Part shown: in pieces, positions 44,881 to 63,525 of the stretch | Position numbering within the stretch: position 1 is the first letter of the stretch | Layout of the letters: each line of letters begins with the position of its first letter | From: an uncultured Acidobacteriota bacterium | GTDB lineage: Bacteria > Acidobacteriota > Thermoanaerobaculia > UBA5066 | Reading direction: 5' to 3' | NCBI GenBank assembly: GCA_963779415.1 | Contig: CAVZYA010000001.1 | Span: forward strand, 608,001 to 672,000 | DNA length: 64,000 bases | Made by a program: the position numbers and the translations under genes | Notes under the pieces: generated by a model | What the model was told of the DNA's origin: nothing | Database searches by the model: none | What the model saw: only the letters and a program-made list of their open reading frames with translations

Positions 44881-44903
44881 TCTCTCGTGACAGGGAGCTT
44901 CGC

Positions 44904-45737
44904 ATGCCGATCGTCACGATTTCCCGCGGAACCATGAGCGGTGGGAAGGCCCTGGCGGAGTGCCTCGCCACGACGCTGGGCTGCTCCTGCATCGCCCGCG
45001 AGGTTCTGGTCGAGGGCGCCGCCAAGCTGGGGGTCTCGGAGGAGTTCCTCCGCGAAAGACTGGAGCGAGCGCCCGGTCTCTGGGAGCGCCTGACAGCCGA
45101 GCGGAAGACGTACGCTCTGGCGACGCAGGCGGCTCTGGCCGAGCAGGTCGTCCGCGGCGAGGCCGTCTATCACGGCCTGGCCGGACACCTCCTCCTTCGC
45201 GAGATCCCCGAGGTGCTGCGCGTCCGGCTCATCGCGCCGGCCGAGATCCGGGTGAAGGCCCTCATGGAGCAGCGGCGCATGACCCGGGAAGACGCCGAGA
45301 GGTTCATCGCCCAGGTGGACAGTCACCGGGTGAGGTGGACGCGGCTCATGTACAACGCCGACATCGAAGACCCGCGTCTGTACGACATCGTTCTCAACCT
45401 CGAGAAAACCACGATCCAGTCGGGATGCGACACGGTCATCACCCTCGCCCGGCGGCCGGAATTCACCATCGACGACGCCGCCCGCGCGCGTTTGAGCGAC
45501 TTCGTCCTCACCTGCCGCGTGCGTCTCGCCCTGGCCGTTCAGCCGGCCACGCGGGGCCTCGAGCTGGACGTGACGGTCCGCGGCGGCACGGTCACCCTTT
45601 CGGGCAAGGTCCCGAAGCCCGACATGCTGACCCATGCGAGCGATCGCTGGATGAAGGAGCTTCGCGAGGCGGTGGAGGGGGTGACGGGAGTCAAGCGGGT
45701 CGTCCTCGACGTGAGCGTGGTAAGCGCTTACCACTGA
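44904..45737 (+). CDS. Cytidylate kinase-like family protein with C-terminal BON-like domain
   Basis: GGGAG RBS; MPIVTISRGTMSGG P-loop, LRVRLIAP...R, DPRLYDIVLN; tail LDVTVRGGTVTLSGKV...VEGVTGVKRV. Confidence 0.82.
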   Translation: MPIVTISRGTMSGGKALAECLATTLGCSCIAREVLVEGAAKLGVSEEFLRERLERAPGLWERLTAERKTYALATQAALAEQVVRGEAVYHGLAGHLLLREIPEVLRVRLIAPAEIRVKALMEQRRMTREDAERFIAQVDSHRVRWTRLMYNADIEDPRLYDIVLNLEKTTIQSGCDTVITLARRPEFTIDDAARARLSDFVLTCRVRLALAVQPATRGLELDVTVRGGTVTLSGKVPKPDMLTHASDRWMKELREAVEGVTGVKRVVLDVSVVSAYH

Positions 45738-46912: not shown

Positions 46913-48142
46913 ATGGGCGGGTTCTGGCGCCGCCTCGCCCGGATCCTCCCCCCGGTCCCGCGCCGACAGGGCCGCCTCTCCGTGGAGGCGAAGTTCACGC
47001 TGCTCCGGGCGATCGGCGCCGCAAACGACACGTTTCTCGCCGCCCTCGCCCGGTACCAGGAAGGAGAGGAGACGGAGACTCCGCCGGGGCTGGGCGCCGT
47101 CGCCGAGGCGTACGAAGGCCTGTCGGCACCGGTCGGCGAGATGGTCCGGTCCCTTCTGACCATGTCCCGGGGGCGTTATGTCGAGCTGGCCCAGCGTTAC
47201 GAGACGCTCGATCGGGAGCTGGCCTGCGAATTCCTGGGCTCTTCTCCCGTCGAGTTCGGCCCCCTCGTCATGACGCCCGAAGACGCCGAGGCCTGCCTTC
47301 CGGTGCGCGAGAAGCTGCGGAAGCTGATGGAGCGGGTGACGCCTCTCACGCTGACCGACCCCGAGTCGCCCACCTTCGACCCCGCGCACTGCCAGACGCT
47401 TCACGACGTGGCTCACTTCGTCCATCAGCGCGCCATGGGCGAGATGTCCGCCATCGAGGAGCTGACGGCCGGCGAGCGGCGCACGTGCCGGCGCCTCGTA
47501 TGGCACCGCCCCATGGAGGTTCGGCTTCTGGACCTCGGGGGGGCGGTCGGGCCGGAGACCGGCCGGGAGGTCGCGCTAGCGGACGTGACCTCGGTCCCGC
47601 TTCATGCTCTTCTGGAAGGGATGCTGGACTCGCGGCTCCGGTGGGCCGGTCCCGTGGGATTCGACCTGAAAGGGTTCGTCTCGGTGGTGGTTCGGAGCGC
47701 CGCGGACGACCAGCGGTACGGCGAGCCGAGCTACGCCCTCTGCTCCGCGGATTACCTCCACTTCGCCTCGCGCCTTGCCTACCACTTCGCCCTCGTGGAT
47801 GCCCTCTGCGGCGAGTCGTTGAACGAAAACTATGTCCGCTTCCGTTTCCATGGCGGCGCGGCGGTGGCCGAGCGGCGGGAGTGGCGGGGGCAGTTCCTCG
47901 TCACGGTGCTTGAGTACAATCGCTTTCTCGTCACGCACGTGGGTGATCGCGTGAATGCCATCCTCCCCGGGCGGCCCGTAGAGGAACTGGAGGACGCTCT
48001 CGTCATGCTGGGCCGGCTGATGGTGGCCTCCCGGCATCTGGACATGGTGATCGAGAGCCCTGCGGTGGCCGTGACCCTCGCCCGGGCCTTTCTGGCCGGC
48101 GACTACGGCTTCGATCTGGTCCGGACGCAAGCGGAGCGGTGA
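46913..48142 (+). CDS. PEP-synthase-related protein lacking ATP-grasp and His domains
   Basis: Aligns by eye to the N-terminal helix and C-terminal domain of 51429..53936 and 56003..58588 (TPLTLTD, CQTLHD..HFVHQ, DLGG, YHF..VD, NYVRFRF.GG, LDM). Confidence 0.8.
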   Translation: MGGFWRRLARILPPVPRRQGRLSVEAKFTLLRAIGAANDTFLAALARYQEGEETETPPGLGAVAEAYEGLSAPVGEMVRSLLTMSRGRYVELAQRYETLDRELACEFLGSSPVEFGPLVMTPEDAEACLPVREKLRKLMERVTPLTLTDPESPTFDPAHCQTLHDVAHFVHQRAMGEMSAIEELTAGERRTCRRLVWHRPMEVRLLDLGGAVGPETGREVALADVTSVPLHALLEGMLDSRLRWAGPVGFDLKGFVSVVVRSAADDQRYGEPSYALCSADYLHFASRLAYHFALVDALCGESLNENYVRFRFHGGAAVAERREWRGQFLVTVLEYNRFLVTHVGDRVNAILPGRPVEELEDALVMLGRLMVASRHLDMVIESPAVAVTLARAFLAGDYGFDLVRTQAER

Positions 48143-48603: not shown

Positions 48604-48930
48604 ATCGAACGACGATTCGCCGGCCGATCCGCGTCGGGGCGGGACGCCTGCATTCCGGTCCTGACCGGACTCGCGATCCTTGCGCTCGGGCTCGAGGCGC
48701 GGGGTGCCCCTGCCGGGCCCGCCAGGCAGCTGGTCAACATCGCCGACACGCGCACGCTCCCGCAGGGGTTCACCCGCTGGATCGCGGACGTCTACAACAC
48801 GTCGCACTGGGAATACGGGCTTCTCGTCGTCATCGTCATGGCAGCCATGGGGCTCCTCCTCGGCACCGGATTCGACCGCGTCATCACGAAGCTGGGCATC
48901 GACCTCGGGCGGCTCGAGCATCACGAGTAG
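48600..48930 (+). CDS. DVU0150-like small membrane protein (absent from the ORF track; one frameshift near 48650)
   Basis: Read manually: ...LTGLAILALGLEARGAPAGPARQLVNIADTRTLPQGFTRWIADVYNTSHWEYGLLVVIVMAAMGLLLGTGFDRVITKLGIDLGRLEHHE, stop TAG 48928-48930. Confidence 0.75.
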
Positions 48931-48952
48931 GCCGGACCGGAAGGAACAGCAC

Positions 48953-49981
48953 ATGGACTTCTTCACCGTCTACCTCCCCATCGCGGGAATGCAATTCAAC
49001 GTCCTGCTCCTGCTTCTCATCGGTTTCACCGTCGGCGTCTGCGGGGGCTTTTTCGGGATCGGCGGGGCCTGGATCGTCACGCCCGCCCTCAACATCTTCG
49101 GCTTTCCGATGCCCTATGCCATCGGGACGGACCTTGCCCACATGGGAGGCAAGTCGATCGTCTCGACGATGCGGCACGGGAAGTTCGGAAACGTCGACCT
49201 GAAGCTCGGTTTCTCGATGATCCTCGGAACCACCGTCGGAATCGAGCTCGGAGCACGGCTCGTCATGATGCTCGAACGTGCGGGCCTCGCCGAGTCGGTG
49301 ATCCGGAAGGCGTACATCGTCTTCCTCGGCCTGATCGGCTCGTACGTCCTCTACGACTACATCAGCCACACCCGACGCAGCGCGCGGCCGGCAGAAGCCC
49401 AGACAGCCCGGCCGGAGACGATCGCCCACCGGCTTCAACGGATCAAGATCCCGCCGATGATCCACTTCAAGGCCTCCGGGATCACCTGCTCTCTCTGGCT
49501 GCCGATCCTCGTGGGCCTCACGACGGGGATCGTGGCTGCGGTGCTCGGCGTCGGGGGGGGGTTCATCCGGATGCCGGCCCTCATCTACCTGATCGGCTGC
49601 CCCACTCTGGTGGCCGTCGGAACGGACCTTTTCGAGGTGATGATCACGGGAGCGTACGGATCGTTCACCTACGCGGTGAAGGGGCGCGTCGAGCTGATTG
49701 CGGCGATGTGGATGATCCTCGGCGCCGCCGTCGGCGCCCAGATGGGAACCGTCGCGGTGAAATACGTGCGCGGCTACGCCATCCGCCTCCTCTTCGCCTG
49801 CACGATCTTCATTGCCTGCGCCTCGGTGATCCTCAAGCAGCTTCAGTTCCAGCTCGCCTCGTCGATCACGATCCTGGCCGCCGGAATCGCCATCAGCTCG
49901 GTCATCATCTTCTGGCTGGTCAAGGGAATCCTCGCGGAGCGGGCGGCGCAGCGCCGGCGGCTGGCGGGGACGTCGATCTAG
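48953..49981 (+). CDS. TauE/SafE (TSUP) transporter #2
   Basis: AAGGA RBS, VYLPIAG, GFFGIGGAW, AIGTDL, GNVDLK, LGVGGGF, VAVGTDLF, GAQMG. Confidence 0.9.
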   Translation: MDFFTVYLPIAGMQFNVLLLLLIGFTVGVCGGFFGIGGAWIVTPALNIFGFPMPYAIGTDLAHMGGKSIVSTMRHGKFGNVDLKLGFSMILGTTVGIELGARLVMMLERAGLAESVIRKAYIVFLGLIGSYVLYDYISHTRRSARPAEAQTARPETIAHRLQRIKIPPMIHFKASGITCSLWLPILVGLTTGIVAAVLGVGGGFIRMPALIYLIGCPTLVAVGTDLFEVMITGAYGSFTYAVKGRVELIAAMWMILGAAVGAQMGTVAVKYVRGYAIRLLFACTIFIACASVILKQLQFQLASSITILAAGIAISSVIIFWLVKGILAERAAQRRRLAGTSI

Positions 49982-50365: not shown

Positions 50366-50899
50366 ATGCCGACACTGAAGAGTCTCTTCCTGGTCTTCCT
50401 GAAGATGGGCGCTTTCGCATTTGGTGGCGTCTACTCGATGCTCTCGTTTTTCCAGAGGGAGCTGGTGGACCGGAGACGCTGGCTCAGTGAGGAAGAGTTC
50501 GCCGAAGGAGTGGCCATCGGCCAGATGACACCGGGCCCACCAATCATCAACACCGGGATCTTCGTCGGTTACCGTCTGAAGGGGGCCCGGGGAGCCGTCA
50601 CAACAACCGCCGGCCAGGTCCTCCCGGGTTTCCTCCTGGTCCTCGTTCTGGCATTCCTTTACACAAAGTACAAATCCGTGCCTCTCCTCGAAGGCGCCCT
50701 GAAGGGGATCGGCGCGGCTGTCGTGGGCCTTCTCGGCTCGGTCGTGCTCAAGATGGGCCGGCAGATCGTCGACGGCTGGCAACCCGCGCTTCTGGCGTTG
50801 GGAGGCTTCGGCCTCCTCTATTTCGCCAGGGCGAATCCGATTTTGTTGATCGCGGCGTCCGGCATGCTCGGCTACCTGCTCTACGGGAGAAGCCGATGA
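50366..50899 (+). CDS. Short-chain chromate (CHR) transporter subunit 1
   Basis: FLKMGAFAFGG, WLSEEEF, GQMTPGP, GIGAAVVG. Confidence 0.9.
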   Translation: MPTLKSLFLVFLKMGAFAFGGVYSMLSFFQRELVDRRRWLSEEEFAEGVAIGQMTPGPPIINTGIFVGYRLKGARGAVTTTAGQVLPGFLLVLVLAFLYTKYKSVPLLEGALKGIGAAVVGLLGSVVLKMGRQIVDGWQPALLALGGFGLLYFARANPILLIAASGMLGYLLYGRSR

Positions 50900-51428: not shown

Positions 51429-53936
51429 TCAGAACCTCTCCCACTCGCCGGCGAGGAAGGCGCGAGCGAAGAAGTCGGGGCTCGCATCGGAGCCCATCAG
51501 CATGTCGAGCTGGCGGGCGCAGAGCGTGAGGTGGCCGAGGTCGACGAGGCGGGCCCGGATGGTCTCGGCCCCGTACTTGTCGAGGCGCGCCGTCAGAAGG
51601 TCTCCCCGCGCCTTCACCTTGAAGTCGAGGGCGGCGAGGACGGTCTCGAGAAATCGGACCCGGCGCTCGCGCCGAGCCGCGTCCGCCGCTCCCCCCGAGA
51701 AGCGGAAGTGGACGTAGTTCTTGTTCTGGCTCTCGCCGCAGTACGTGTCGACGGTGGAGAAATGGTAACCGGCCTTGGTCGAGAAGTTCATGTAGCGGTC
51801 GGAGACGATCGCGTACGAGAGCCTACCGATCTGCCGGGCCTCCGCCGGGGGGCCGGAGATGCTCTCGCCGAGGACGGAGAGGAAGCCGCTCATCGAGACG
51901 GGCCTCGGCTGGTTCCAGCGGATCCGCTCCTCCAGCATTCCGGAGATAAACGCGTTCATCGGCACGCTCGTGATCTGCCCGGGCCTCACGCTCTCCGATC
52001 CCGCCGCGTCGGGGGAGATCCCGCCGCCGACGTCGAAGACCCGGACGGTGATCGGGAGCGGCGCCTCGAGACGTTTCGACGCCTCCCGGTCGTCGACGGC
52101 GAGATCGCCGAAGTGGAACATCACCTCGTACGCCTTCTCGTGGACGAAGCGCGTCACGTCGTGAAGCGACCGGCAGCTCTCCGACTTGAAATCGGGTGCG
52201 GTGGAGTCGGTCAGCCGGAGAGGCGTGACGAACGCCGCGATCTCCCGGAGCGCCTCTCTGGCGGGGGTGTCGGTGAGGGGGCGGCGGATTCCTGGCGGAA
52301 TCGCTCCGGGCGGAGGCGGACCCGGAAAGACCTTACGGAGCCCGGCATCAACGGTCACGATCCTGCCGGCCTCGAGAACGGCCGTCGCGCCCGCCATGCC
52401 GACGATCGTCGGGACGTCGAACTCGCGCGCCAGGCTCGCCATGTGGCCGATCGGCGAACCGACGTCGGTCACGATGGCCGCGCAGCGGCCCATGACGCGC
52501 GAGTAGGCGGGCGACGAGTGGTGGGCGACGAGAACGCCGCCATGGGGGAATGCCGCGAGGTCGTCGTCGGGGCGGACCGGCACCACGGCGCCCGAGCCGA
52601 CCCCGAGACTGGCGGTGAGCCCCCCCGACAGGAGCGCCGGCCGCGAGTCGTCGACTTCGAGGACACTTTCCGCCTTGCGGGCGAGCGCGACGAGCGGGCG
52701 TGCCTGAAGGATGATCAGCTCCCGCCCCTCCCCCAGCGCCCACTCCACGTCCTGCGGGCCGCCGAAGTGCTCCTCCAGGCGGCGCGCCGCGACAACCAGC
52801 CCGGCGACCTCCGGGACCGTGAGCAGGTCGCTCGCGGCCTCGTCCTCGCGCCCCGGCCTCGCCACGATGAGCTCGGCTCCCTCCTCCCCGGAAGCGAGGC
52901 GGTCGGCGACCCCGAGCGTGGCGCCGATGACGACGGCGTCGGAGCCGGGGTCGTCGGGAGGTCGCGAGTGGAGTATCCCCGCGCAGCGGGCAGCGACCAT
53001 CGCGACGCAGCCCACGGCCATCAGCGCCGCGTGCGTCGGCAGCCCCCGCTCGTACCGGTAGGAGACGGCGGCAGGGTTGTAGGCGCTGGCGAGCACGCCA
53101 CGGTAGGCGTCGAGGAGCCGCGCGGCGGAAACGTGCAGCTCGGTGGCGTAGAGGCCCGCATGCGAGGCCTCCCGCGAGTCCTCGCCCACCGCGCTGGAGC
53201 GGACGGCCACCAGGCTTCCGGGGGGGAACGTGGCCGAGAAAGCCTTCTGGATCGCCGCAGAAAGCTCCTCCGGGATCGGGGCCGAACGGACGGCGGCCTG
53301 CACCTCGGCGCAGGCGGGACCGAGGGCCTCGGCCCCGTCCAGCTCCAGGACGCTCTCGAGCCGTTCACAGCGCTCCCAAAGCCCGGCCTCCGAAAGAAAC
53401 CGCCCGGTCGCGGCCGTGGTGATCGCAAAACCGGCCGGGACGCGGAGCCCCGGGCAGCTCCCCACCTCTCCCAGGTTCGCCATCTTGTTTCCGACGAGGG
53501 CGAAATCCTCTTTGCGCAGCTCCGCGAGGCTGACGATCAGGGGGGCGGTCCCTTTCTCCATTCCGCCGAGGAGCGGCTCCAGCTCGCCGTCCATCCGGCG
53601 CAGAGCCTCGTAGAGGCCGTCGTGTCGGCCGCCGGATAGCAGATTGAGATCCTTGACCATGACGAAGACGTCCATGGCCGCCTTTCGGACCCGCCCTTTG
53701 ACGATCTCCAGCGAGAACGGCTCGCGCCCCGCGAGCCGGTCCCCGATCTCGGCGACCAGCTCGAGGGTCCTGTCGTTGAGGGCGAGGATCTCCCGGAACC
53801 GGTCGTACATCATCCGGAATCGCGCCTGACCGGAACGCGGCGGCCGCTCCGCCTCCACCGGCCGCGTCCCTCGCGAGCCGAACGCCGACCGGAAAGAGTC
53901 GAGAAGGCCCCGGAGCGCTTTGCCCGTCGTCAGCAC
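51429..53936 (-). CDS. PEP-synthase/pyruvate-dikinase-like protein A (ATP-grasp + phospho-His domain + novel C-terminal domain)
   Basis: VGNKMANLGE, VPAGFAIT, AVRSSAVGED, AGLYAT, QDVEWA, ILQARP, GHMASLAREFDVP; no PEP-binding TIM barrel. Confidence 0.88.
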   Translation of the reverse strand: MLTTGKALRGLLDSFRSAFGSRGTRPVEAERPPRSGQARFRMMYDRFREILALNDRTLELVAEIGDRLAGREPFSLEIVKGRVRKAAMDVFVMVKDLNLLSGGRHDGLYEALRRMDGELEPLLGGMEKGTAPLIVSLAELRKEDFALVGNKMANLGEVGSCPGLRVPAGFAITTAATGRFLSEAGLWERCERLESVLELDGAEALGPACAEVQAAVRSAPIPEELSAAIQKAFSATFPPGSLVAVRSSAVGEDSREASHAGLYATELHVSAARLLDAYRGVLASAYNPAAVSYRYERGLPTHAALMAVGCVAMVAARCAGILHSRPPDDPGSDAVVIGATLGVADRLASGEEGAELIVARPGREDEAASDLLTVPEVAGLVVAARRLEEHFGGPQDVEWALGEGRELIILQARPLVALARKAESVLEVDDSRPALLSGGLTASLGVGSGAVVPVRPDDDLAAFPHGGVLVAHHSSPAYSRVMGRCAAIVTDVGSPIGHMASLAREFDVPTIVGMAGATAVLEAGRIVTVDAGLRKVFPGPPPPGAIPPGIRRPLTDTPAREALREIAAFVTPLRLTDSTAPDFKSESCRSLHDVTRFVHEKAYEVMFHFGDLAVDDREASKRLEAPLPITVRVFDVGGGISPDAAGSESVRPGQITSVPMNAFISGMLEERIRWNQPRPVSMSGFLSVLGESISGPPAEARQIGRLSYAIVSDRYMNFSTKAGYHFSTVDTYCGESQNKNYVHFRFSGGAADAARRERRVRFLETVLAALDFKVKARGDLLTARLDKYGAETIRARLVDLGHLTLCARQLDMLMGSDASPDFFARAFLAGEWERF

Positions 53937-53946
53937 CGTGTCCTGC

Positions 53947-54321
53947 TCATCGGACCTTGCCCGCCGCAGCCCGTCTCACCGTGTCGAGGAGCACGTCGAG
54001 CTCGATCGGCTTGAGCAGGTAGTCGAAGGCGCCCAGCTCCATTCCCTTGACGCCCAGCTCGGCCGAGGCGTGGCCCGTCAGGAGGACGACGGGGAGGGCG
54101 GGATAGAGGCGGCGGAGCCGTCTCAGCAGCTCGAGCCCGTCCATTTCGGGCATCTTCACGTCGACCACGGCGCAATCGCACGGGGAAGAACCGAGGATCG
54201 CGAGGGCCTCCGCACCGCTCACGGCCGTGGTGCAGGCGATCCCGCGCCGTTCGAGCCTCGCCTTCATCGGCTCCAGAAACTCCACCTCGTCGTCCACGAG
54301 AAGCAGCCTGAGATCCGCCAT
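53947..54321 (-). CDS. Single-domain response regulator
   Basis: LLVDDE, DVKMPEMDG, LTGH, DYLLKP. Confidence 0.92.
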   Translation of the reverse strand: MADLRLLLVDDEVEFLEPMKARLERRGIACTTAVSGAEALAILGSSPCDCAVVDVKMPEMDGLELLRRLRRLYPALPVVLLTGHASAELGVKGMELGAFDYLLKPIELDVLLDTVRRAAAGKVR

Positions 54322-54351
54322 GGCGCGTCCCTCCTCTCCGTCCGGCCCGCC

Positions 54352-56010
54352 TTAGCTCCCTTTCGCCTCCGGAGGAAACCACAAACTGAATGCGGCGCCC
54401 CCTTCCGGGCCTCTCTCCACCCCGATCGACCCCCCGAGATTCGTCATGATCTCCTGGCAGATGGCAAGCCCCAGCCCGGTGTGCTCCCGTGAGCCCTCCT
54501 TCGTCGAGTAGAAAGGCTCGAAGATCCGCGCCCGCTCCTTTTCGGGAATGCCGGGCCCGTTGTCGATCACGCGGACGCGGACTCCCCCGCCTTCGGCCTC
54601 GACCACGAGACGCACCTCTCCCTTCTCTCCAAGGGCGTCCAGCGCGTTGTTGATCAGGTTCAGGAAGACCTGCTGCATCCGCGACAGGCTCGAGCGGATC
54701 AGGGGGATGTCGGGGGCGTATTGCCGGACGATCCGGACCCCGGAGCTCTCGAGCTGTTTCTCGAGGAAGCCGACGGTCTCGTCGAGCGCGGCGGCCACGT
54801 CGACCGGCTCCAGCTCGGGCCCCACCCTGCGGGAGAAGCCGAGAAGCTGGTGCGTGACCTTTCGCCCTCGCTCCACCTGTGCCTCGATCTTGGCGATGCG
54901 CGCCCGGAACTCGTCGCGCTCCGGAAGATCGGGCCTCTCCGCGACGATGTCCGAGAGAACCCCGACCTGCGCCTGGATGATGGCGAGCGGATTGTTGATC
55001 TCGTGGGCGATTCCGGTGGCCAGCCGGCCGATGGCCGCCATCTTCTGCGACTGTGCCACGGACTCGTAGAGCCCGGCGCGCTCGGCTTCCAGCCCCCGGA
55101 ACTGGCGAAGCCGGTAACGGGCGATGAATCGCGAGAGCACGGGCACCGCAACGAGGCCGGCGAGAATCACGCCCGTCACGGCCGGGTGTCCTCCAAGAGG
55201 GAGAAAGGTGCCCGGCACGGGCTGGAGGGCCACCAGCACCCAGGCCTCTCCCCGAAGCCAGGCCGTGCCGAACAGCTCGCGGCGGCCGCCCCGCCGCCCC
55301 TCGACCACCCGCACCCCCGAGTGAAGCGGGACGGGGGGGATGTCGGCACGCTCCATGAGACGGTGCTCCTCGGAGTAGCGCGTCTGGTACTCGCCGTTGC
55401 GGTTGAGGATGAAGACGTCGGCCCCCGACTCGAGCCCCCCCTCGCGGACGAGCGACGAGAGCCGGTCGGTATCGATGCTGGCGCGGACGATCCAGTCCTG
55501 GCCCGCCTCGCGCTTCTTGACCGCCATCACCATGTGGGGAAATCGCCGGAACCCGAGGAAGATGTCGCTCTCGTACCGCCCCTGGACCATCACCTGCTGG
55601 AACCAGCTCTCGCCCGAGTAGTCGAGGCCCGCGAGGTTGTAGGGACCGGCATAAGCGACGTGCCGGCCGTCCGCAGCGATCAGTCCGAGGTCGACGAAGG
55701 CCCCCCCTTCCCTCCGGGACTGCTCGAGGATCGCCGAAAGGAGCGGGGGCCGGGAGAGCTGCTCGACCGGGAGCGCGTCCGCGATCATCTGGAGCTGCCG
55801 CATCGTGTCTCCGAGGAAGAGATCCACCGTGGCCTTGCGGTTCTTGACCATCGCCTCCAGGACGCCCCGCGTACGGCTCTCCTGGATGGCCCGGTTTGCG
55901 AAAGTGACGGCGATCGCGGTCGCGACGACGGGGACGAGACCGAAGGCCAGGAGGACGAAGAAGATCTGCCGGCGGAGGCGCCGGTAGGGATTGGGAGCGG
56001 GCTCAGCCAT
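54352..56010 (-). CDS. Sensor histidine kinase with periplasmic Cache-like domain
   Basis: TM, DLGLI..G.HVAYAGPY, WFQ, SDIFLGFR.FPH, TM, AHEINNPL, NLINNALDA, DNGPGI, GLGL. Confidence 0.92.
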   Translation of the reverse strand: MAEPAPNPYRRLRRQIFFVLLAFGLVPVVATAIAVTFANRAIQESRTRGVLEAMVKNRKATVDLFLGDTMRQLQMIADALPVEQLSRPPLLSAILEQSRREGGAFVDLGLIAADGRHVAYAGPYNLAGLDYSGESWFQQVMVQGRYESDIFLGFRRFPHMVMAVKKREAGQDWIVRASIDTDRLSSLVREGGLESGADVFILNRNGEYQTRYSEEHRLMERADIPPVPLHSGVRVVEGRRGGRRELFGTAWLRGEAWVLVALQPVPGTFLPLGGHPAVTGVILAGLVAVPVLSRFIARYRLRQFRGLEAERAGLYESVAQSQKMAAIGRLATGIAHEINNPLAIIQAQVGVLSDIVAERPDLPERDEFRARIAKIEAQVERGRKVTHQLLGFSRRVGPELEPVDVAAALDETVGFLEKQLESSGVRIVRQYAPDIPLIRSSLSRMQQVFLNLINNALDALGEKGEVRLVVEAEGGGVRVRVIDNGPGIPEKERARIFEPFYSTKEGSREHTGLGLAICQEIMTNLGGSIGVERGPEGGAAFSLWFPPEAKGS

Positions 56011-58588
56011 TCTCCGCCTCCCCCTTGAAGCCGTAACGGCCCGCCATGAATGCCTCCTCGAAGACGGTGACGAGTGCGTCGGAGGTGAGCGCCATGTCCA
56101 GGTGGTTGACGAAACCCGTCAGCAGCCCGACGAGAACGAGCGCCTGAAGCATCTCCGCGGCGGGGCGGTGACGCGCGCGGGCGTTGACGAGATCGGCCTT
56201 GCAATCGGTCTCGAAGCCGTGGCGCGCCAGGATCCGCTGGATCAGCATCGCCCGGCGCGAGCGCTGGTCCACGCCTGTGGACCCTCCCACGAAGCGGAAC
56301 GAGGCGTAGTTCGACTCCACGGCCTCCCCGACGCGGGCGTCGACCGTCGAGAAGTGATAACCGACCCTCGAATTGAGGTTCATGTAGTCGGATGTAATGA
56401 AGACATACGACGGCTCGCCCATCGCGCGAACCCTCACGTCCTGGTCGTAGTTGTAGTTGACGACCGCCGACAGGAAGCCCGAAACCGAGACGGGCCTCGT
56501 CATGCGCCAGCGGATGCGCGGATCGGTCAATCCGCGCCAGAGCGCGAGAAGCGGGACGGAGACGACGTCTTCGATCGTGACGTCGCCGGACGCCACGTCC
56601 TTTCGAAGGCCCCCGCCGAGATCGAAGAGCCGGCAGTCGATCGGGACCGTCGAAACGAGCCGGTGTACGGGCGTTCCCTGGCGGAGGGCACCGTCCCCGA
56701 GGGCGAACATCGCCTCCACGGCGGCCTGGTGGCAGAAGCGGATCATGTCGTGGAGCGTCCGGCACTTCCGGGGGGAGTAGCCGCTCGCCAGCCGGTCCCG
56801 GAGCGTGAGCGGAACGATGAAGTCGGCCACGGAGGCGAGGCGCTCGACCGCGGGGCTCTGTCGCCCGGGAGGCCGGACTTCCTGGGCACGAACGAGCGCC
56901 TCTTCGACCCGCCCCTCGTAGACCACCCCGGCATCCGCATCGACCGTGACGGAGGCGGCGCCGGGCAGTGCCGTCGTGGCCGCGTTCGTCGCGAGGAGAG
57001 CCGGAACTCGGAGCTCGCGCGCCACGGTGGCCAGATGTCCGGTGACCTCGCCCCTGTCCGCCACGAGAGAGGCGGCCTTGGGAAGCAGGACGGCGAAGCG
57101 GGGGTTCGCCTCGGAAGTCACCAGAACGCCGCCGGAGGGAAAGCGAAGGATGTCGAGATCGGTCTCCACCCGAATCGGCTCCCCGAAGCCGACTCCACCC
57201 GAGGCCCTCGAGCCCCCGTCGAGAAGGACGCGTGCACCGGCGACGCGGGGCGGGGGCGTTCGCCACGTCTCCCCGGCGTGCTCGGGCTGCGGCCGGACCT
57301 GCAGGACGAAGGCGCGGCCCTTCCGGTCGATGGCCCACTCCATGTCCAGGGGCATGCCGAGGTGGTCCTCGAGCTGCCAGGCGAGCCGGGCGACCGAAAG
57401 CGCCTGATCGTCGGAAAGAATCGGGACGACCCCAAGGCCGGCCTGGACCGTCCGCGTCTCGGTCCCTTCCCCTTCGGCGCAGGCAAGGAGGGCGTCCTGG
57501 CGCCCGGAGGTCCTGTTCGTGATCCTCCCGTGTCTGCGGTCGAGGAAGATCGAGTCCGGTACCGCCGAGCCATCCACTGCGGAAAGCCCGAGACCTCGCA
57601 CGGCCTGGATCAGCGTCCGGACGCCGGTTTCGGTCCGGCAGGCGCTGTAGAGCACCCCCGCCGACTCCGCGTCCACCATGGCGAGGACGCAGCAGCACAT
57701 CGCCACCTCGTCATCCTCGAGGCCGCGCCCGAGCCGGTAGGTGATCGCCTGCGGCGAGTACTTGCTGGCCACGACCCGGCGAAAAGCGTCTCCGATCCCG
57801 CCCGCCGGCACGTTGAGGAGCGACCGGTATTGCCCGGCGAACGAGACCTCGAGCCCTCCCTCCTGGAGCGCGCTCGAGCGGACCGCGAAGCGTGTTCCGT
57901 CGCCCCCGAGCGATGCGGCGCCCGTCTCGAGCTCCGCCGCGACGCGCGCGGGAAGTCGCGCATTTTCGATCATCTGGGTGATCCGCGCCGCGGCCGAGAA
58001 GGTGGCGGCGGTGTCCGACGGGTCGAGCGCCGCCATCACCCCGGCGATCTCCTCGGCGAGGCCGGATCGGCCGATGAACTCGCGGTACGCCGGCTCGGTG
58101 GTGGCGAAGCCGTCGGGCACCCGGCCGGGAAGAAGCCGGCGCGCCTCGCCGAGAAAGGCGCTCTTCTGCCCCACGACCTCGGCCATCTCCGCGCGGACCT
58201 CGGCGAGCGGCATGGTGAAGCCGACCGACCCGAGATAGGGCGTCACCTCCGCTCTCCCCGAAATCCGCCCTCGCAGGTCGTGGAAGCGGCGGACGAGGAC
58301 GGGGAAGCGGTCGCCCGTCATCCGGTTCAGGTTCGCGATCATCCGGAATGTCTGGACGGTCACCCCCGCAACGAGACGGCGGCTTTCGGCGGCCGTGACG
58401 GAGCGCTCCCCCGCGAGCGCTTCCTGGATCCGGGTGACGAATCCCAGAGCCGTGTTGTTGGCCTGCAGGACCTCCCGGTAGCAGGACATCCGGACGTCGA
58501 GGTCCGGCATCCCCCTCCTCCCGGGGAGCCATCGGAAGGCTCTCGGGGGCTCGGGATCAGGCGGGCGGTCGCGCGGCGTGGAAACCAC
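56003..58588 (-). CDS. PEP-synthase/pyruvate-dikinase-like protein B
   Basis: VGQKSAFLGE, VPDGFAT, AVRSSALQE, SFAGQYRS, DMEWA, LQVRP, TGHLATVAREL; same novel C-terminal domain as protein A. Confidence 0.88.
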   Translation of the reverse strand: MVSTPRDRPPDPEPPRAFRWLPGRRGMPDLDVRMSCYREVLQANNTALGFVTRIQEALAGERSVTAAESRRLVAGVTVQTFRMIANLNRMTGDRFPVLVRRFHDLRGRISGRAEVTPYLGSVGFTMPLAEVRAEMAEVVGQKSAFLGEARRLLPGRVPDGFATTEPAYREFIGRSGLAEEIAGVMAALDPSDTAATFSAAARITQMIENARLPARVAAELETGAASLGGDGTRFAVRSSALQEGGLEVSFAGQYRSLLNVPAGGIGDAFRRVVASKYSPQAITYRLGRGLEDDEVAMCCCVLAMVDAESAGVLYSACRTETGVRTLIQAVRGLGLSAVDGSAVPDSIFLDRRHGRITNRTSGRQDALLACAEGEGTETRTVQAGLGVVPILSDDQALSVARLAWQLEDHLGMPLDMEWAIDRKGRAFVLQVRPQPEHAGETWRTPPPRVAGARVLLDGGSRASGGVGFGEPIRVETDLDILRFPSGGVLVTSEANPRFAVLLPKAASLVADRGEVTGHLATVARELRVPALLATNAATTALPGAASVTVDADAGVVYEGRVEEALVRAQEVRPPGRQSPAVERLASVADFIVPLTLRDRLASGYSPRKCRTLHDMIRFCHQAAVEAMFALGDGALRQGTPVHRLVSTVPIDCRLFDLGGGLRKDVASGDVTIEDVVSVPLLALWRGLTDPRIRWRMTRPVSVSGFLSAVVNYNYDQDVRVRAMGEPSYVFITSDYMNLNSRVGYHFSTVDARVGEAVESNYASFRFVGGSTGVDQRSRRAMLIQRILARHGFETDCKADLVNARARHRPAAEMLQALVLVGLLTGFVNHLDMALTSDALVTVFEEAFMAGRYGFKGEAENG

Positions 58589-58681: not shown

Positions 58682-60922
58682 TCAGATGAAGAGCGGCGCC
58701 AGGACGAGGGTGATCGTGGAAAGGAGCTTGATCAGGACGTGAAGCGACGGGCCGGCGGTGTCCTTGAACGGGTCGCCCACGGTGTCGCCGACGACGGCTG
58801 CCCCGTGTGTGGGGTTCTTCATTTTCTTGCCGTCCGGCGCCGTCAGGTATTTCCCGCCGTGCGCACCGCTCTCGATGTACTTCTTGGCATTGTCCCAGGC
58901 GCCGCCGCTGTTGTTGAGGAAGAGCGCCATGAGAATCCCGCAGATGGTCCCGACCATGAGCAGACCGGCCACGGCCTCGGCGGAGATGAGCCTGTTTTCC
59001 GGCGTGATGAACATCTTGAAGATGAGGCCGACGCCGATCGGAGTGAGAACCACGAGGAGGCCCGGCGCGACCATCTTGCGGAGCGCTGACTTCGTGACGA
59101 TGTCGACGCAGGCGCTGTAGTCCGGCTTGAAGTCGGCGGGGAACTGGATGATGTCGTTGAGGCGCGGGAGCTTGGCGTACTGCCGGCGCACCTCCTCGAT
59201 GATCGCCTGCGCGGCCTTGCCAACCGCCCGGATGGCCATCGACGAGAAAAGGAAGACCAGGGCCGCACCGATCAGCGCGCCGACGAAGACGACCGGGTTG
59301 GCGAGGTTGACCCCATGCATTTCCTGTCCGGCGTACTGCGCCACCTCGTCCATGTAGGCCTGGAAGAGGAGGAACGCCGCGAGGGCCGCGGACCCGACCG
59401 CGTACCCCTTCGTGAGCGCCTTCGTGGTATTACCAACGGCATCGAGCCGGTCGGTCTTCTTGCGGACGTTCTCCGGCTGCTCGGACATCTCCACGATGCC
59501 GCCCGCGTTGTCCGTGATCGGGCCGAAAGTGTCCATGGCAAGGATGTAGGCCGCCGTCGCGAGCATCCCCATCGTGGCCACGGCAGTGCCGAAGAGGCCC
59601 CCGTGCATCCCGGAGGAAGCCGGGAAGGCCGACTGCCCGAGGAAATAAGACCCGAGAAGCGCGGCGCCCATGACGAGGGTCGGCATCCAGGTGCACTCGA
59701 GGCCGACGCCGACGCCGGCGATGATGTTCGTGGCCGGGCCGGTCTTGGACGCCTCGGCGATCGACTGGACGGGGCGGTACTTGTACTCCGTGTAGTACTG
59801 CGTGATGTAGACGAAGGCGACCGACGTGAGGACCCCGACGATGCCGCAGAGGAAGAAGTGCCACCAGGCGTCGGGCGCGCCCGGCGGGTTGAGGAGCCAG
59901 TATGTCGTTCCGCCGAAGGCCACCATCGCAAGCACCACCGCGTAGTAGTAGCCGCGGTTCAGCGCCTGCATCGGGTCGATCTTCTCTTCCTTGTCCATCT
60001 TGACCATCATGATTCCGATGATCGAGGCGACGATTCCGAAGGCGCGCGCGACGAGGGGGAACATCATCACGCCGATGACGCCGGCGGAGAATCCGAAGTT
60101 GGCCTTCTCCGCGGCGGCCGCCAGCGAGGCCCCGAGGATCATGGCGCCGATGTTCTCGGCGGCCGTCGACTCGAAGAGGTCGGCGCCGCGCCCCGCGCAG
60201 TCGCCCACGTTGTCGCCCACGAGATCGGCGATGACGGCCGGGTTGCGAGGATCATCCTCGGGGATGCCGGCCTCCACCTTGCCGACGAGGTCCGCGCCGA
60301 CGTCGGCCGCTTTCGTGTAGATACCGCCGCCGAGTTGGGCGAAGAGTGCGACGAAGGAGGCTCCGAATCCGTAACCGACGATCAGGAGAGGGATCTTCGT
60401 CGGCTCGACGTTGCCGAACGCGTCCACGAGGGCGTAAAGCCCGCTCACCCCGAGAAGGCTCATGGCCACGACGAGGAGACCGGACACCGCGCCTCCCCGA
60501 AGGGCGATGCGGAGCGCGTCGTTGAGGCTGGTGAGCGCCGCCGTCGCCGTCCGGATGTTGCTCCGGATCGAGACCCACATCCCCACGTACCCGGCGAAGA
60601 CGGAGCAGAGGGCGCCGAAGACGAAGGAGAGGGTGATCCAGAAGGCGAGCGCGTACGAACTCCCCACGGGATCGAACGGGCGGTGTTCCCGGACGACGCC
60701 GTACCCGAGGAAAAGAACGACCGCGAACGCCAGGGCGAGGCCGAGGATCGTCCGGTTCTGACGCCGGAGGAACGCCTCGGCCCCCTCCTTGATCGCGTTC
60801 GAGATCTTCTGCATCGCCTCGCTTCCCGTCGAGAAGCGCAGGACCCAGCGGGCCAGATAGGCGGCGAAGAGCAGGCCGAACACCGAGAATCCGATTACCA
60901 GAAGGATGAGCTGTGCGGTCAT
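58682..60922 (-). CDS. hppA: Membrane-bound pyrophosphatase (K+-independent type)
   Basis: GGGIYTKAADVGADLVGKVE, EDDPRN, DNVGD, DTFGPITDNAGG, GNTTKA, GDTVGDPFKD; GAGGAG RBS. Confidence 0.95.
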   Translation of the reverse strand: MTAQLILLVIGFSVFGLLFAAYLARWVLRFSTGSEAMQKISNAIKEGAEAFLRRQNRTILGLALAFAVVLFLGYGVVREHRPFDPVGSSYALAFWITLSFVFGALCSVFAGYVGMWVSIRSNIRTATAALTSLNDALRIALRGGAVSGLLVVAMSLLGVSGLYALVDAFGNVEPTKIPLLIVGYGFGASFVALFAQLGGGIYTKAADVGADLVGKVEAGIPEDDPRNPAVIADLVGDNVGDCAGRGADLFESTAAENIGAMILGASLAAAAEKANFGFSAGVIGVMMFPLVARAFGIVASIIGIMMVKMDKEEKIDPMQALNRGYYYAVVLAMVAFGGTTYWLLNPPGAPDAWWHFFLCGIVGVLTSVAFVYITQYYTEYKYRPVQSIAEASKTGPATNIIAGVGVGLECTWMPTLVMGAALLGSYFLGQSAFPASSGMHGGLFGTAVATMGMLATAAYILAMDTFGPITDNAGGIVEMSEQPENVRKKTDRLDAVGNTTKALTKGYAVGSAALAAFLLFQAYMDEVAQYAGQEMHGVNLANPVVFVGALIGAALVFLFSSMAIRAVGKAAQAIIEEVRRQYAKLPRLNDIIQFPADFKPDYSACVDIVTKSALRKMVAPGLLVVLTPIGVGLIFKMFITPENRLISAEAVAGLLMVGTICGILMALFLNNSGGAWDNAKKYIESGAHGGKYLTAPDGKKMKNPTHGAAVVGDTVGDPFKDTAGPSLHVLIKLLSTITLVLAPLFI

Positions 60923-61016: not shown

Positions 61017-61811
61017 TTAGTGCCCTCCCTGCCCGAACAGAGTCCCCGCGATCCAGCCCGAGACGACCGCGATGAGGACGGTGAAGGCGCCATAGAAGAC
61101 GGGGCGCCGGTCGGCCAGTCTCGAGAGCCAGTCCACGATCCCCGTCTTTCGAAGGAAGAGTTCGTTCGTCTCCATGCCGAGCAGCCGCTCCTCGCCGACG
61201 AAGTACGTCGTGGCGCCGTACAGGCCGTCCGGCGCGGACGCGGGAAGCCGGAAGGAATGGTAGAAGGCGCCTTCGGCGTTCAGCCGGATGGCGTTGGTCC
61301 GGACGCCGTAGAGGCCCCGCTGCGCCTGAAGATCCCAGTAGCCCTTCAGCACGCTCTCCTCCTCCCCGGGCCGAAGGGGCGAGGAAAGGCTCTCGAGACG
61401 CGCCCGAGCGGCCACGTCATCGGGGCCCGTCAGGAGGCCCAGCGGCGCGAGAAGCCGATTGCTGAGTTCGAGGGCGTCGGTATGAGGACAGGGAGCGAAG
61501 CCGTTGCAGACGGGACAACTGACGTTGACGAGGTAGAGCCCCGGCACTCCCGAGAGGCGGTACTGGCGAACGCCGAGCCACAAGAGCGCGACCCGCCCTT
61601 TCTCCATCAGCCGGATCTGCCCGGCCGGAGGACCTTCCATCACCACGATGACGTGGCGGGTCCCGGCCGGAGCCCTCCCGTAAAGGAAGATGTCGCGGCC
61701 CGAGAAGGCGTACGACACGTCGATTCGCCGGACCTCGATCCGGGCGGCGGCGGCCTGCGGGGCCCCCGCGGCCGGTGTCACCGCGAGAGCGACGACGAGG
61801 GCTACGAGCAC
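61017..61811 (-). CDS. TIGR02186-like membrane-anchored protein (usual TSUP neighbour)
   Basis: Signal peptide, IDVSYAFSGRDIFLYG, KGRVALLWL, FRLPASAPDGLY, KTGI..WL...A..RPVFYG, C-terminal TM. Confidence 0.78.
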   Translation of the reverse strand: MLVALVVALAVTPAAGAPQAAAARIEVRRIDVSYAFSGRDIFLYGRAPAGTRHVIVVMEGPPAGQIRLMEKGRVALLWLGVRQYRLSGVPGLYLVNVSCPVCNGFAPCPHTDALELSNRLLAPLGLLTGPDDVAARARLESLSSPLRPGEEESVLKGYWDLQAQRGLYGVRTNAIRLNAEGAFYHSFRLPASAPDGLYGATTYFVGEERLLGMETNELFLRKTGIVDWLSRLADRRPVFYGAFTVLIAVVSGWIAGTLFGQGGH

Positions 61812-61812: not shown

Positions 61813-63525
61813 TCAGTGTCCTCCCCCCGCCTTGGCGAAATCGATGAGCTGGTCCGGAGGCATGAGGAGCTGGAAGAGGAGCATCGCCATCACGACGAGG
61901 ACGATCAGGGCGAGGAAGACGCGGATCTGCTCCCCCCGGACGCGGCGGCTGGCGGCCGCCCCGAACTGGGCGCCGATGACGCACCCGGCGAAGAGCACCA
62001 CGGCCAGCATCACGTCCACTGTCCGGTTGGTGATGGCCTGCTGGAGGGCGACGTTGGCCGACGTGAGGACGATCTGGAACAGGTCGGTCCCGACCGCCAC
62101 CCGGGTGGGGATGCCGATGATGTAGATCATCGTCGGGAGCATGATGAATCCCCCCCCGACGCCCAGGAACGCGGCGAGCACCCCGACGAGGAAGCCGGCG
62201 GCTATCGGAAGAAGGACGGAGGTCCGGAGCCCCGATTTCGGAAAGTCGAGCTGAAGCGGGAGTCGGGCGAAGAAGACCGTCAAGGCGCCGCGCGTCGGCT
62301 CGCCGGCGGGCGACTTCCTCCGCCAGGCGCGCAACCCTTCGCGGAGCATGGTGAGGCCGATGAATCCGAGGACGAGGACATAGGTCAGCTTCAGGAAGAA
62401 GTCGAAATTGCCTTGGTTGCGGAGGACCTTCACGAGCTGCACGCCGACGAACCCGCCCGTCCATCCTCCGCCAATGATGAACAGCCCCATCTTGAAGTCG
62501 ACGTTGCCGAGGCGGGAGTGGGAGAGGGCTCCCGACGTGGCCCCGGCGGTGATCTGGGCGGCGTTTGTGGCGGCGGCCACGGCGGCCGGAATGCCGATGA
62601 AGATCAGGAGCGGCGTCATCAGGAAGCCGCCTCCCACGCCGAACAGACCCGAGAGGAAGCCGACGAGACCCCCCATCCCGGCGATCAGAAGAGGGTTCAC
62701 GGACGCCCCGGCCACAGGGAAATAGACCCGGAGCCGCCGGAGGAGGCTCCGCGTCTCGGGACGCCCCTCGTGGTGTCGCACCCTCTCGAACATGGCGGGA
62801 GTGACCTGCGGGTGGCAGACGCGGCAGGTCCGCTCGAGCCGGGCCGGGTTCAGCCTCGAACGCGGGTCGCTCGCCGGGAGGATCCCGTGCGATCCGTGAC
62901 ATGACGGACAGGTGGCCACGTCGAGGATGCCGTGGGAGAGGGCGACTCCGTGGACCGTTCCCTCGAACCCCTCCACACAGGCCGACGGAAGCTCCGTGTG
63001 CCGGATCACCGCCGGGTCGTCGTGGCAGCGGGCACACGTCGTCGAGACGCGGGCCGTGGAGGTGGGAGCGGCGTCGTCGTGTACCGGAAGGACCGTGTGG
63101 CTGCCATGGCACGAGACGCACGTGGGCGAGAGCCCGTCACCGGCCTTCGCGCCTCGGGCGTGAGAACTCTCCGAATACGCATCCAGTTCGGCCTTGTGGC
63201 AGCGGCCGCAGGTCGCGGCGACATTTCTCGCGTTGACCGGCGAGGAGGGCTCGTCCGGCGAAAGCCGCGTCCCCGCGCCATGACACTCCCCGCACGCGAG
63301 GGGAGCGTGAACCCCTGCGAGCGGCACCTGCCCGCCGCGAGCAGGAAGATCGGCGAACATTCGACCCGAAGGGAGGAGAAAAAGAGCGACGACACCTACC
63401 AGAGAGACCGCCTGTCGCCGGAAGGACGCCGGCCGGCCCGTGTCGTGATCGCCGGTGCACGGGAGGCGCGCACCTCCCCTACTCCCCCAGCAGCTCCGCA
63501 CGTGACCCAGGAAAGCAAGTACCAC
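61813..63525 (-). CDS. Hexaheme cytochrome c fused to TauE/SafE (TSUP) transporter #3
   Basis: CGECH, CGRCH, CVSCH, CARCH, CPSCH, CRVCH, then in frame VYFPVAG, GLFGVGGGF, GNVDFK, VAVGTDLF. The true start is probably near 63460, downstream of the promoter. Confidence 0.85.
   Translation of the reverse strand: MVLAFLGHVRSCWGSRGGARLPCTGDHDTGRPASFRRQAVSLVGVVALFLLPSGRMFADLPARGGQVPLAGVHAPLACGECHGAGTRLSPDEPSSPVNARNVAATCGRCHKAELDAYSESSHARGAKAGDGLSPTCVSCHGSHTVLPVHDDAAPTSTARVSTTCARCHDDPAVIRHTELPSACVEGFEGTVHGVALSHGILDVATCPSCHGSHGILPASDPRSRLNPARLERTCRVCHPQVTPAMFERVRHHEGRPETRSLLRRLRVYFPVAGASVNPLLIAGMGGLVGFLSGLFGVGGGFLMTPLLIFIGIPAAVAAATNAAQITAGATSGALSHSRLGNVDFKMGLFIIGGGWTGGFVGVQLVKVLRNQGNFDFFLKLTYVLVLGFIGLTMLREGLRAWRRKSPAGEPTRGALTVFFARLPLQLDFPKSGLRTSVLLPIAAGFLVGVLAAFLGVGGGFIMLPTMIYIIGIPTRVAVGTDLFQIVLTSANVALQQAITNRTVDVMLAVVLFAGCVIGAQFGAAASRRVRGEQIRVFLALIVLVVMAMLLFQLLMPPDQLIDFAKAGGGH

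Follow-up and report, generated by a model that had tools for sequence, protein, structure and literature searches.

A 64,000-nucleotide stretch of the genome of an uncultured Acidobacteriota bacterium (GenBank assembly GCA_963779415.1, contig CAVZYA010000001.1, positions 608,001 to 672,000; hereafter, the window) encodes on its reverse strand a hexaheme cytochrome c that is fused, in one chain, to a transporter of the TSUP (TauE/SafE) family. This fusion is a real and conserved new architecture within known protein families, although public records name the protein merely “TSUP family transporter” or “YfcA.” A gene for an Alph_Pro_TM protein (Pfam ID PF09608), here called the partner, lies immediately downstream of the fusion gene in all 18 loci where the fusion was found. 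Gene context and phyletic co-occurrence provide good support for tying the fusion to dissimilatory sulfur metabolism.

Architecture and conservation of the fusion protein

The open reading frame (ORF) of the fusion protein and its parts are as follows.

61813-63525, reverse strand: whole ORF, with leader, hexaheme cytochrome c, and TSUP domain; 570 amino acids (aa), stop codon at 61813-61815
63364-63411, reverse strand: hydrophobic segment, residues 39-54, after an Arg-rich N-region (read from the sequence)
62740-63330, reverse strand: hexaheme domain, residues 66-262, six CXXCH motifs (Pfam matches and conservation; the nearest non-TSUP relatives are multiheme or cytochrome c-b proteins)
62695-62811, reverse strand: linker, residues 239-277, with M245, H251, and a β-hairpin before the first TSUP helix (AlphaFold2 model and alignment)
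61816-62694, reverse strand: TSUP/TauE domain, residues 278-570 (PF01925 match and AlphaFold2 model)

As an earlier note on this DNA had described, six CXXCH motifs follow a hydrophobic segment and run unbroken into a complete TSUP domain. The single frame is open over 570 codons and contains the junction sequence that the note had quoted. The motifs start at residues 78, 106, 136, 164, 206, and 234, and cytochrome c families of Pfam span residues 75 to 240; the Cytochrome_C7 profile (PF14522) matches with 34.2 bits (cut-off, 24.8). The TauE profile (PF01925) matches residues 282 to 548 with 154.6 bits (cut-off, 32.6) over its positions 2 to 236 of 237, and the Pfam search gave no match of the fusion protein to the cytochrome b family PF01292. 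The only start codons ahead of the hydrophobic segment are GTG at codon 1 (63525) and GTG at codon 9 (63501). Residues 39 to 54 are taken as a putative Sec signal peptide or signal anchor, and the N termini of the homologues are ordinary and signal peptide-like. The statement in the same note that no in-frame ATG precedes the TSUP part proved wrong: codon 245 (62793-62791), 33 codons ahead of the first TSUP helix, is an ATG, and its Met is kept in 53 of the 62 homologues in alignment A1.

The TSUP domain consists of two repeats, each with a helix that is broken at a GVGGGF motif and three long helices, and has a conserved C-terminal GGGH. The internal duplication includes FGVGGGF at residues 294 to 300 and LGVGGGF at residues 454 to 460, with Gly residues that are invariant or nearly so. 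In the AlphaFold2 model of the fusion protein (predicted local distance difference test score [pLDDT], 81.8; predicted template modeling score, 0.73), a β-hairpin precedes the broken helix and the three long helices of each repeat. BacA is built from inverted repeats with re-entrant hairpins, and BacA/UppP is the best, although weak, match of the full model in a Foldseek search of the PDB (E value, 0.09; probability, 0.99; TM-score on the target, 0.47). By sequence, no TSUP relative was found in the PDB at an E value of ≤1. A scan for promoters and terminators was uninformative: it gave no promoter-like site (0), and its 4 terminator-like sites compare with an expectation of 2.8.

All twelve heme Cys residues and five of the six CXXCH His residues are invariant in the 62 homologues, and H82 is found in 61 of them. 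Candidate distal ligands are also conserved: H122, H192, and H213 in all 62 sequences, H143 in 58, H251 in 55, M245 in 53, and H198 in 52. The conserved His and Met residues would suffice for six-coordination of every heme, which gives the domain the look of an electron wire and not of a catalytic site. The hydrophobic leader suggests that this domain is exported to the periplasm; the source genome contains three matches over the cut-off to the cytochrome c assembly family PF01578.

The earlier note had suggested an architecture search for a multiheme cytochrome combined with PF01925. Precomputed annotation of 5.8 billion proteins indeed shows a cytochrome c family together with PF01925 in 104 of the 120 best relatives. 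At least five CXXCH motifs are found in 103 of the 120, placed ahead of the TSUP part, whereas 11 proteins, mostly truncated gene calls, have one to four and 6 have none. Forms with 6, 7, and 9 to 10 hemes occur among the homologues, and the full-length ones are 45 to 87% identical to the fusion protein. Among the 1.84 billion representatives of a library clustered at 50% identity, both parts are covered in one stretch by only 8 of the best 150 matches, 5 of them at full length, so the fusion family is small and compact.

The 18 distinct loci with the fusion are the window's own (L009), L011 (the same as L205), L184, L022, L023 (the same as L223), L102, L185, L186, L200 to L204, L206 to L209, and L211. 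Each of ten newly fetched loci has one continuous frame with 5 to 9 CXXCH motifs. The carriers are labelled Thermoanaerobaculia or Acidobacteriota, with one same-genus contig labelled Acidithiobacillales. The fusion is rare, being found in 3 of 41 relatives and in 3 of 401 genomes across the phylum at an E value of ≤1e-95; a metagenome scan with TSUP-centered patterns yielded just one fused locus. No clear natural split form was found among the relatives. Seemingly unfused close relatives of the P0110 type were discarded as such, since they are fused in species-representative genomes at 95% identity (L200).

An artefact, with two adjacent genes merged by an assembly or sequencing error, is effectively excluded by the occurrence of the same architecture in most of the best relatives and in 18 loci, and its probability is negligible. 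What could be cited for it is a likely frameshift elsewhere in the genome (qmoA in two frames) and the frameshifts in the fusion gene of L023. Against it stand the uninterrupted architecture of 103 of the 120 best relatives, which recurs at 17 other loci of different assemblies, as well as contigs from other public runs, which cross the junction gap-free, with no stop or indel (X3 record 18, 62691-62874; X2 record 15, 62757-62907). These contigs, which are not raw reads and none of which covers the whole gene, lend weak support to the absence of an indel between 62700 and 62800. Neither of the findings that the earlier note had named as fatal to the fusion, an indel or stop between the domains or domains that are always encoded by separate genes, was encountered at the junction in these contigs or among the homologues. 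In L023 (6766-7687), a long-read metagenome-assembled genome, a frame change interrupts the fusion gene and another interrupts hppA, probably through an assembly error.

The Alph_Pro_TM partner and its cysteine insert

The partner gene and its insert are located as follows.

61017-61811, reverse strand: Alph_Pro_TM partner, 264 aa, with signal peptide, two β-sandwich domains, and a C-terminal transmembrane (TM) helix (PF09608, 139.4 bits)
61482-61517, reverse strand: C-x2-C-x5-C-x-H insert of the partner (C99, C102, C108, and H110), a motif found in the subfamily

The earlier note had called this neighbor TIGR02186-like. It matches the Pfam family with 139.4 bits (cut-off, 24.5), and its score for the NCBIfam equivalog TIGR02186, 75.2 bits, is below the cut-off of 255.25. 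No literature on TIGR02186, Alph_Pro_TM, or PF09608 was found. The model of the partner alone (pLDDT, 87.4) consists of generic β-sandwich domains. Reading a function from this fold was abandoned, as it has many unrelated β-sandwich matches (best Z score, 9.3; SoxZ, with a Z score of 8.4, is within the tie range).

Modeling of the fusion protein together with its neighbor, another suggestion of the earlier note, predicts that Alph_Pro_TM binds the fusion protein: the interface score ipSAE is 0.71, compared with 0.00 for the best of three controls. Among solved complexes, 58 of 80 attain the mark used for this score, as do 2 of 110 mismatched pairs, a calibration that is only rough, since own alignments were used. 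The runs agree in at least 74% of the contacts, and the pLDDT of the partner is at least 76. In the complex model, the C-terminal helix of the partner (residues 237 to 260) packs on TSUP helices 323-335 and 486-520, which carry the T-D-x-x-Q motifs, and runs parallel to TSUP helix 314-338. The exported domain of the partner contacts TSUP residues 266 to 275, 370 to 376, and 553 to 565, as well as residues 194 to 200 of the heme domain.

Given a periplasmic partner domain, the model fits six membrane crossings and two re-entrant hairpins, with the N and C termini of the TSUP domain outside; charge counts alone do not settle the TSUP topology. Independent support for both the pairing and the topology comes from single-chain TSUP-Alph_Pro_TM fusions in public data (P0282, P0285, P0305, and P0313; 543 to 579 aa) and from the extra N-terminal TM or signal segment ahead of TSUP in the relatives P0275, P0292, and P0286. 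Gly-rich tails with a terminal His (GGGH or GGH) end the TSUP protein (61816-61827) and many partners (61017-61031), also in unfused pairs. By the predicted topology, the tails of the two proteins would be on opposite sides of the membrane.

The window partner belongs to a subfamily of 58 proteins with at least 48% identity, the next relatives having at most 33%. The C-x2-C-x5-C-x-H motif is present in 46 of the 58 members and its three Cys residues in 47, compared with none of 6 outgroup proteins. In the aligned segment, the three-Cys motif is found at 11 of 209 partner loci, namely, ten fused ones and L210, where the TSUP gene is cut by the contig end; among these 209 loci, the Cys3-His insert was not found in partners of clearly unfused TSUPs. 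Seven further fused loci are without the three-Cys form: six have a two-Cys variant, and L102 has a differently spaced Cys pair.

Gene context and relatives of the heme module

The genes around the nine-heme forms of the fusion include those for AprB, AprA, QmoC, and Sat, all over curated cut-offs, and for QmoA and QmoB, which are recognizable as HdrA-like proteins, QmoB with an MvhD-type domain. The gene order is aprBA-qmoABC-fusion-partner-sat in L185 and L186; qmoABC-fusion-partner-sat in L022, L200 to L204, L208, and L209; qmoC-fusion-partner in L102; qmoC-sat-hppA-fusion-partner in L023 and L211; and fusion-partner-hppA in the window, L011, and L184. In total, qmoC and/or sat adjoin the pair at 13 of the 18 fused loci, and hppA does so at another 3, one of which is that in the window. 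Such neighbors are found at only 2 of 165 unfused TSUP loci (aprBA at L037 and an hppA-like gene at L133) and at 0 of 58. The link to sulfur anions that the earlier note had proposed is therefore backed by the neighboring qmoC, sat, and hppA genes. The genes dass, sulP, sat, ppa, and hppA are counted as sulfate transport and activation genes in a passage of Hausmann et al. (PMC6018796).

The phyletic distribution points the same way. Among the 41 relatives, aprA scores over the cut-off only in G000 (the source genome), G006, and G012, the same three genomes that have the fusion. The 41-relative tallies and one of the 165 unfused loci include an unpublished genome (G030) that lacks both the fusion and aprA. 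Of the 401 genomes in the phylum sample, 36 contain aprA, and the 3 genomes with the fusion are all within those 36. Overall, aprA is present in all five fusion genomes searched (G000, G006, G012, G181, and G407), and no fusion was found in the aprA-negative genomes among those searched.

The source genome encodes dsrA (over the cut-off), aprBA, qmoABC, and sat at C1:710-726 kb, 40 to 55 kb from the fusion. A family search for DsrD returned no match anywhere, including the controls, and so says nothing on the direction of the pathway. The qmoA gene of the source genome is in two frame-shifted pieces (L198, G000:C1:706000-725999, 13570-14831; query residues 22-239 and 221-440), which suggests a frameshift or an assembly indel. 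A transporter that was sought in the gap between qmoC and sat in G263 was rejected, since this gap holds an M3-type peptidase on the other strand.

The heme module has relatives of its own. When residues 66 to 262 are searched alone, 35 of the 120 best relatives carry PF01925 and 85 are other multiheme proteins (28 to 42% identity). PF01292 is present in 26 of these 85, in agreement with the kinship to CbcL-type cytochrome c/b proteins that the earlier note had recognized; none of the 120 carries both PF01925 and PF01292. In the source genome, a paralogue (L006:1201-2562) is followed by a PF01292 (Ni_hydr_CYTB) gene. Since such relatives are tethered to PF01292, the module appears to be of a kind that normally works against a membrane b-type cytochrome. 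The paralogue, which is the closest one to the heme module in its own genome, is a 453-aa multiheme cytochrome with a C-terminal TM helix, and together with the cytochrome b561-type gene after it (L006 1201-3410; G000:C1:581573-585100) forms a split CbcL-like pair.

In most fused loci, the gene directly upstream of the fusion encodes QmoC, the di-heme b subunit of Qmo. QmoC may therefore be a partner of the fusion in trans. The 775-aa protein P0286 combines QmoC (residues 17 to 391; 336.9 bits, cut-off 300), an extra TM segment, and a TSUP domain that is 49% identical to that of the window and likewise ends in GGGH; no relatives of it were found among species representatives. Relatives of P0275 display a loose sulfur context: L277 has aprBA next to the pair, and L273 has a DASS gene. 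As the TSUP-Alph_Pro_TM pair is widespread without hemes, the heme module might be a later addition to it. The idea in the earlier note that TSUP replaces the cytochrome b domain can hence be kept as an architectural analogy only.

The genes next to the pair in the window are listed below.

58682-60922, reverse strand: hppA, membrane H+-pyrophosphatase, next downstream of the pair (PF03030, 855 bits); also adjacent in L011, L184, L023, and L211
63700-64000, reverse strand: 3'-terminal part of a gene for an anion symporter of the DASS family (Na_sulph_symp), immediately upstream of the fusion, continuing past the window (L009:7701-9542)
56003-58588, reverse strand: PPDK_N/PEP-utilizers protein, 861 aa, a recurrent neighbor of TSUP-Alph_Pro_TM pairs (L010 and many loci labelled as Desulfobacterota type)

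The product of the DASS gene matches PF00939 with 152 bits and TIGR00785 with 185 bits, below the cut-off of 198.6. A recurrent cassette consists of genes for a histidine kinase, a TSUP protein ending in GGGH, Alph_Pro_TM, and an approximately 860-aa PPDK_N plus PEP-utilizers protein, whose two terminal portions are unassigned. It is found at L010 (G000:C1:538000-548000, 976-6854), at 51429-58588 in the window, and at many loci labelled as Desulfobacterota type, and the window and its flank contain three such PPDK-like genes. Upstream, a region dense in anion transporters (forward strand: 43390-44775, 44799-45737, 45973-46908, 48680-49981, and 50366-50899) holds two further TSUP paralogues, half of a chromate transporter, a sigma-54 activator, and a cytidylate kinase-like/BON protein. 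Two ORFs of 838 and 409 aa (41121-43637, reverse strand, and 46913-48142, forward strand) have no Pfam or NCBIfam match and may be spurious ORFs in GC-rich DNA. Just past the window (G000:C1, L009 9814-11565), a CitMHS/ArsB-type permease with an N-terminal extension matches the profile of the magnetosome transporter MamN with 184 bits (cut-off, 500).

Proposed role, known systems, and alternatives

Several known systems share parts of this architecture. The full-length TSUP domain with two GVGGGF repeats and the link to sulfur oxyanions are those of TauE/SafE/TSUP transporters, to which the fusion adds an exported hexaheme domain, an obligate Alph_Pro_TM partner with a Cys3-His insert, and a position in sulfate reduction operons. 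CbcL is an inner membrane cytochrome of Geobacter in which a multiheme c domain is fused to a cytochrome b of the HydC/FdnI type. CbcL-type cytochromes have a similar heme module (31 to 42% identity), which is likewise N-terminal, periplasmic, and placed on a polytopic membrane domain. In the fusion protein, however, that membrane domain is a PF01925 transporter with no redox cofactors and no PF01292, so that it is not a member of this group. MamO of magnetotactic bacteria consists of a protease-like domain and a TauE domain; it resembles the fusion in joining TSUP to a non-cytoplasmic soluble domain and in a weak profile match to its TauE part, but the soluble domain and the gene context are different and the scores are far below the MamO cut-off. 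DsrJ of DsrMKJOP, TmcA, and HmcA are cytochrome c subunits of membrane complexes of sulfate reducers. They, too, are periplasmic multiheme c proteins whose genes accompany those of a membrane complex supplying sulfur reduction in the cytoplasm; in contrast to the fusion, they are separate subunits beside b-type or FeS membrane subunits, and we know of none that is fused to a transporter.

The closest parallel is the unfused TSUP-Alph_Pro_TM pair, as in the L010 paralogue and in DITHS69_1990/1989 of Dissulfuribacter thermophilus, the latter according to a passage in PMC13490349. It is the same two-gene unit, with a shared C-terminal GGGH and 50% identity in the TSUP part, but without the heme domain and the Cys3-His insert, and it is usually accompanied by histidine kinase and PPDK-like genes rather than by qmo or sat. 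In Dissulfuribacter, the same passage reports, a TauE/SafE protein and a “co-occurring transmembrane protein” rise in thiosulfate disproportionation; judging by its name, the latter is putatively a PF09608 protein. TauE of Cupriavidus necator is presented as a proposed sulfite exporter in passages of PMC5840216 and PMC3949148, and in passages of PMC5840216 Marietou et al. treat TSUP proteins as poorly characterized candidates for sulfur-anion transport in sulfate reducers. Neither literature searches nor the main texts consulted turned up a published account of a fusion between a cytochrome and TSUP, or of apr-qmo-sat operons that contain the pair. TauE, DUF81, and TSUP are unmentioned in the main texts of PMC8528874, PMC10591310, PMC10504309, PMC6018796, and 10.1101/2025.05.29.656830; this negative does not extend to Supplementary Table 5 of PMC8528874, which may list the fusion gene.

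The preferred reading, to which we give somewhat better than an even chance, is that of an accessory sulfur-oxyanion transporter of dissimilatory sulfate reduction with a periplasmic electron wire, where the substrate and the role of the hemes are what we infer. The fusion would be one inner membrane protein, with a Sec leader that exports the six-heme c-type domain to the periplasm and a short linker that joins it to a TSUP transporter whose N and C termini face the periplasm. Alph_Pro_TM would pair with it, placing its TM helix on the T-D-x-x-Q helices of TSUP and its β-sandwiches in the periplasm. In a clade of Acidobacteriota that resembles Thermoanaerobaculia, the pair might then serve the adenosine 5'-phosphosulfate (APS) branch of dissimilatory sulfate reduction as an accessory module, working next to Sat, HppA, and Qmo to carry a sulfur oxyanion through the membrane; it is the gene context that speaks for transport. 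Import of sulfate beside Sat and HppA is the most likely, if tentative, choice, put slightly short of an even chance; alternatives would be export of sulfite or sulfate, or thiosulfate as the substrate. The heme wire would connect the module, and most plausibly the b-hemes of QmoC, with the pool of periplasmic cytochromes and thereby couple transport with electron supply.

A number of observations weigh against this reading. A transporter needs no hemes, and since TSUP holds no redox cofactor, any redox coupling would have to go via another protein or the substrate. The Cys3-His insert is absent from the confident interface of the complex model, and direct contact between hemes and these Cys residues, which was considered as well, is unsupported because the insert is not among the confidently touching residues. 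As for gene context, L207 has no sulfate reduction gene within ~5 to 6 kb and lies beside two PPDK-like genes, L206 has only 290 bases upstream, too little flank to judge, and in the source genome the apr-qmo-sat operon is uninterrupted, with the pair outside it, ~45 kb away. The related genomes are kin, so that the co-occurrence counts overstate independence. Of the 36 aprA-positive Acidobacteriota sampled, 33 are without the fusion at an E value of ≤1e-95, and G202 has aprBA-qmoABC-sat without it; the fusion is therefore dispensable for the pathway. The QmoC-TSUP protein P0286 is known from a single 90% cluster, whose two members come from two sources, and could be a read-through of adjacent genes. 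Finally, at codon 321 (62563-62565), which belongs to the T-D-x-x-Q motif of the first TSUP repeat, the fusion in the window encodes Asn (N321) in place of the Asp found in 59 of 62 homologues. Codon 515 of the window copy also deviates, encoding Cys in place of the Ser of 59 of 62 homologues; each of these deviations could be a real variant or a sequencing error.

The hemes might, alternatively, only sense the redox state of the periplasmic cytochrome pool and gate TSUP, passing no electrons to the substrate or Qmo, which would restrict the uptake and activation of sulfate to times when electrons are at hand. Such a redox-gated transporter, which appears doubtful, would agree with six hemes that all seem six-coordinate and non-catalytic, with the position of the heme domain in the model, in contact with the partner and over the periplasmic face of TSUP, and with a TSUP that has no redox cofactor of its own. 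However, sensor heme domains usually hold one or two hemes, and a number that varies from 6 to 10 across the homologues is typical of wires of different length; moreover, the nearest relatives of the module are electron transfer domains of cytochrome c-b proteins. Those relatives, bound to b-type cytochromes, also speak for a cytochrome c subunit of Qmo, whose main task would be to pass electrons between periplasmic cytochromes and QmoC and for which TSUP-Alph_Pro_TM would be mainly an anchor or docking scaffold, with transport secondary or lost. This option draws on the position of the fusion directly after qmoC in L022, L102, L185, L186, L200 to L204, L208, and L209, on the existence of the QmoC-TSUP protein, on the D321N change in a near-invariant motif of the window copy, and on the further Qmo partner argued for by Ramos et al. 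in a passage of PMC3333476. It is nonetheless judged distinctly unlikely, as the polar residues conserved in the family are almost all preserved in the TSUP domain throughout the 62 homologues, which points to retained transport, and as the pair sits with hppA, not qmo, in the window, L011, and L184.

Another explanation takes the pair for a periplasmic sulfur compound oxidoreductase with its own channel: the hemes would feed or drain a Cys3-His site in the partner, and TSUP would pass the substrate or product, the candidate substrates being thiosulfate, tetrathionate, polysulfide, and sulfite. Sulfur compounds like these are commonly handled by cysteine-based chemistry, and the insert is confined to partners of heme-fused TSUPs (plus L210, with its cut TSUP gene). 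The induction of a TauE pair in thiosulfate disproportionation elsewhere, as given in that part of PMC13490349, would also be in line with it. Its low probability reflects the 12 of 58 subfamily members without the full motif, several nine-heme loci with two Cys only, the generic fold of the partner, and the place of the insert outside the confident interface, where it may serve as a metal site or form a structural disulfide. Handling of metal (iron), as proposed for MamO and magnetochromes, with the hemes reducing or oxidizing iron at the mouth of a TSUP cation channel, is highly improbable. The TSUP parts of relatives do weakly match the C-terminal TauE part of MamO (E values, 8.4e-07 to 4.3e-09), the neighboring CitMHS gene matches MamN (184 bits, cut-off 500), and there are conserved Asp residues in TM helices and a GGGH C terminus; but all these matches are far below the family cut-offs, and the gene context is one of sulfate activation and APS reduction, not iron.

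The transporter reading with a periplasmic electron wire addresses two open questions: which proteins carry sulfate across the membrane in sulfate reducers and how QmoABC gets electrons of enough driving force for APS reduction. With regard to the latter, Ramos et al., in the same passage of PMC3333476, propose that Qmo needs an unidentified further partner, none being encoded with sat-aprBA-qmoABC. In these bacteria, the heme-TSUP/Alph_Pro_TM pair could be that missing partner, in which a cytochrome c built onto a sulfate channel would feed electrons from the periplasm into the b-hemes of QmoC or draw them off. This is rather unlikely, but if it were true, sulfate import, activation by Sat and HppA, and APS reduction would form one supercomplex driven by periplasmic electrons. 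More generally, a secondary transporter fold can be joined to a multiheme cytochrome, and the joining of a transporter-candidate family with a putative electron wire, in a gene that lies between qmoC and sat, provides a concrete protein pair for both questions.

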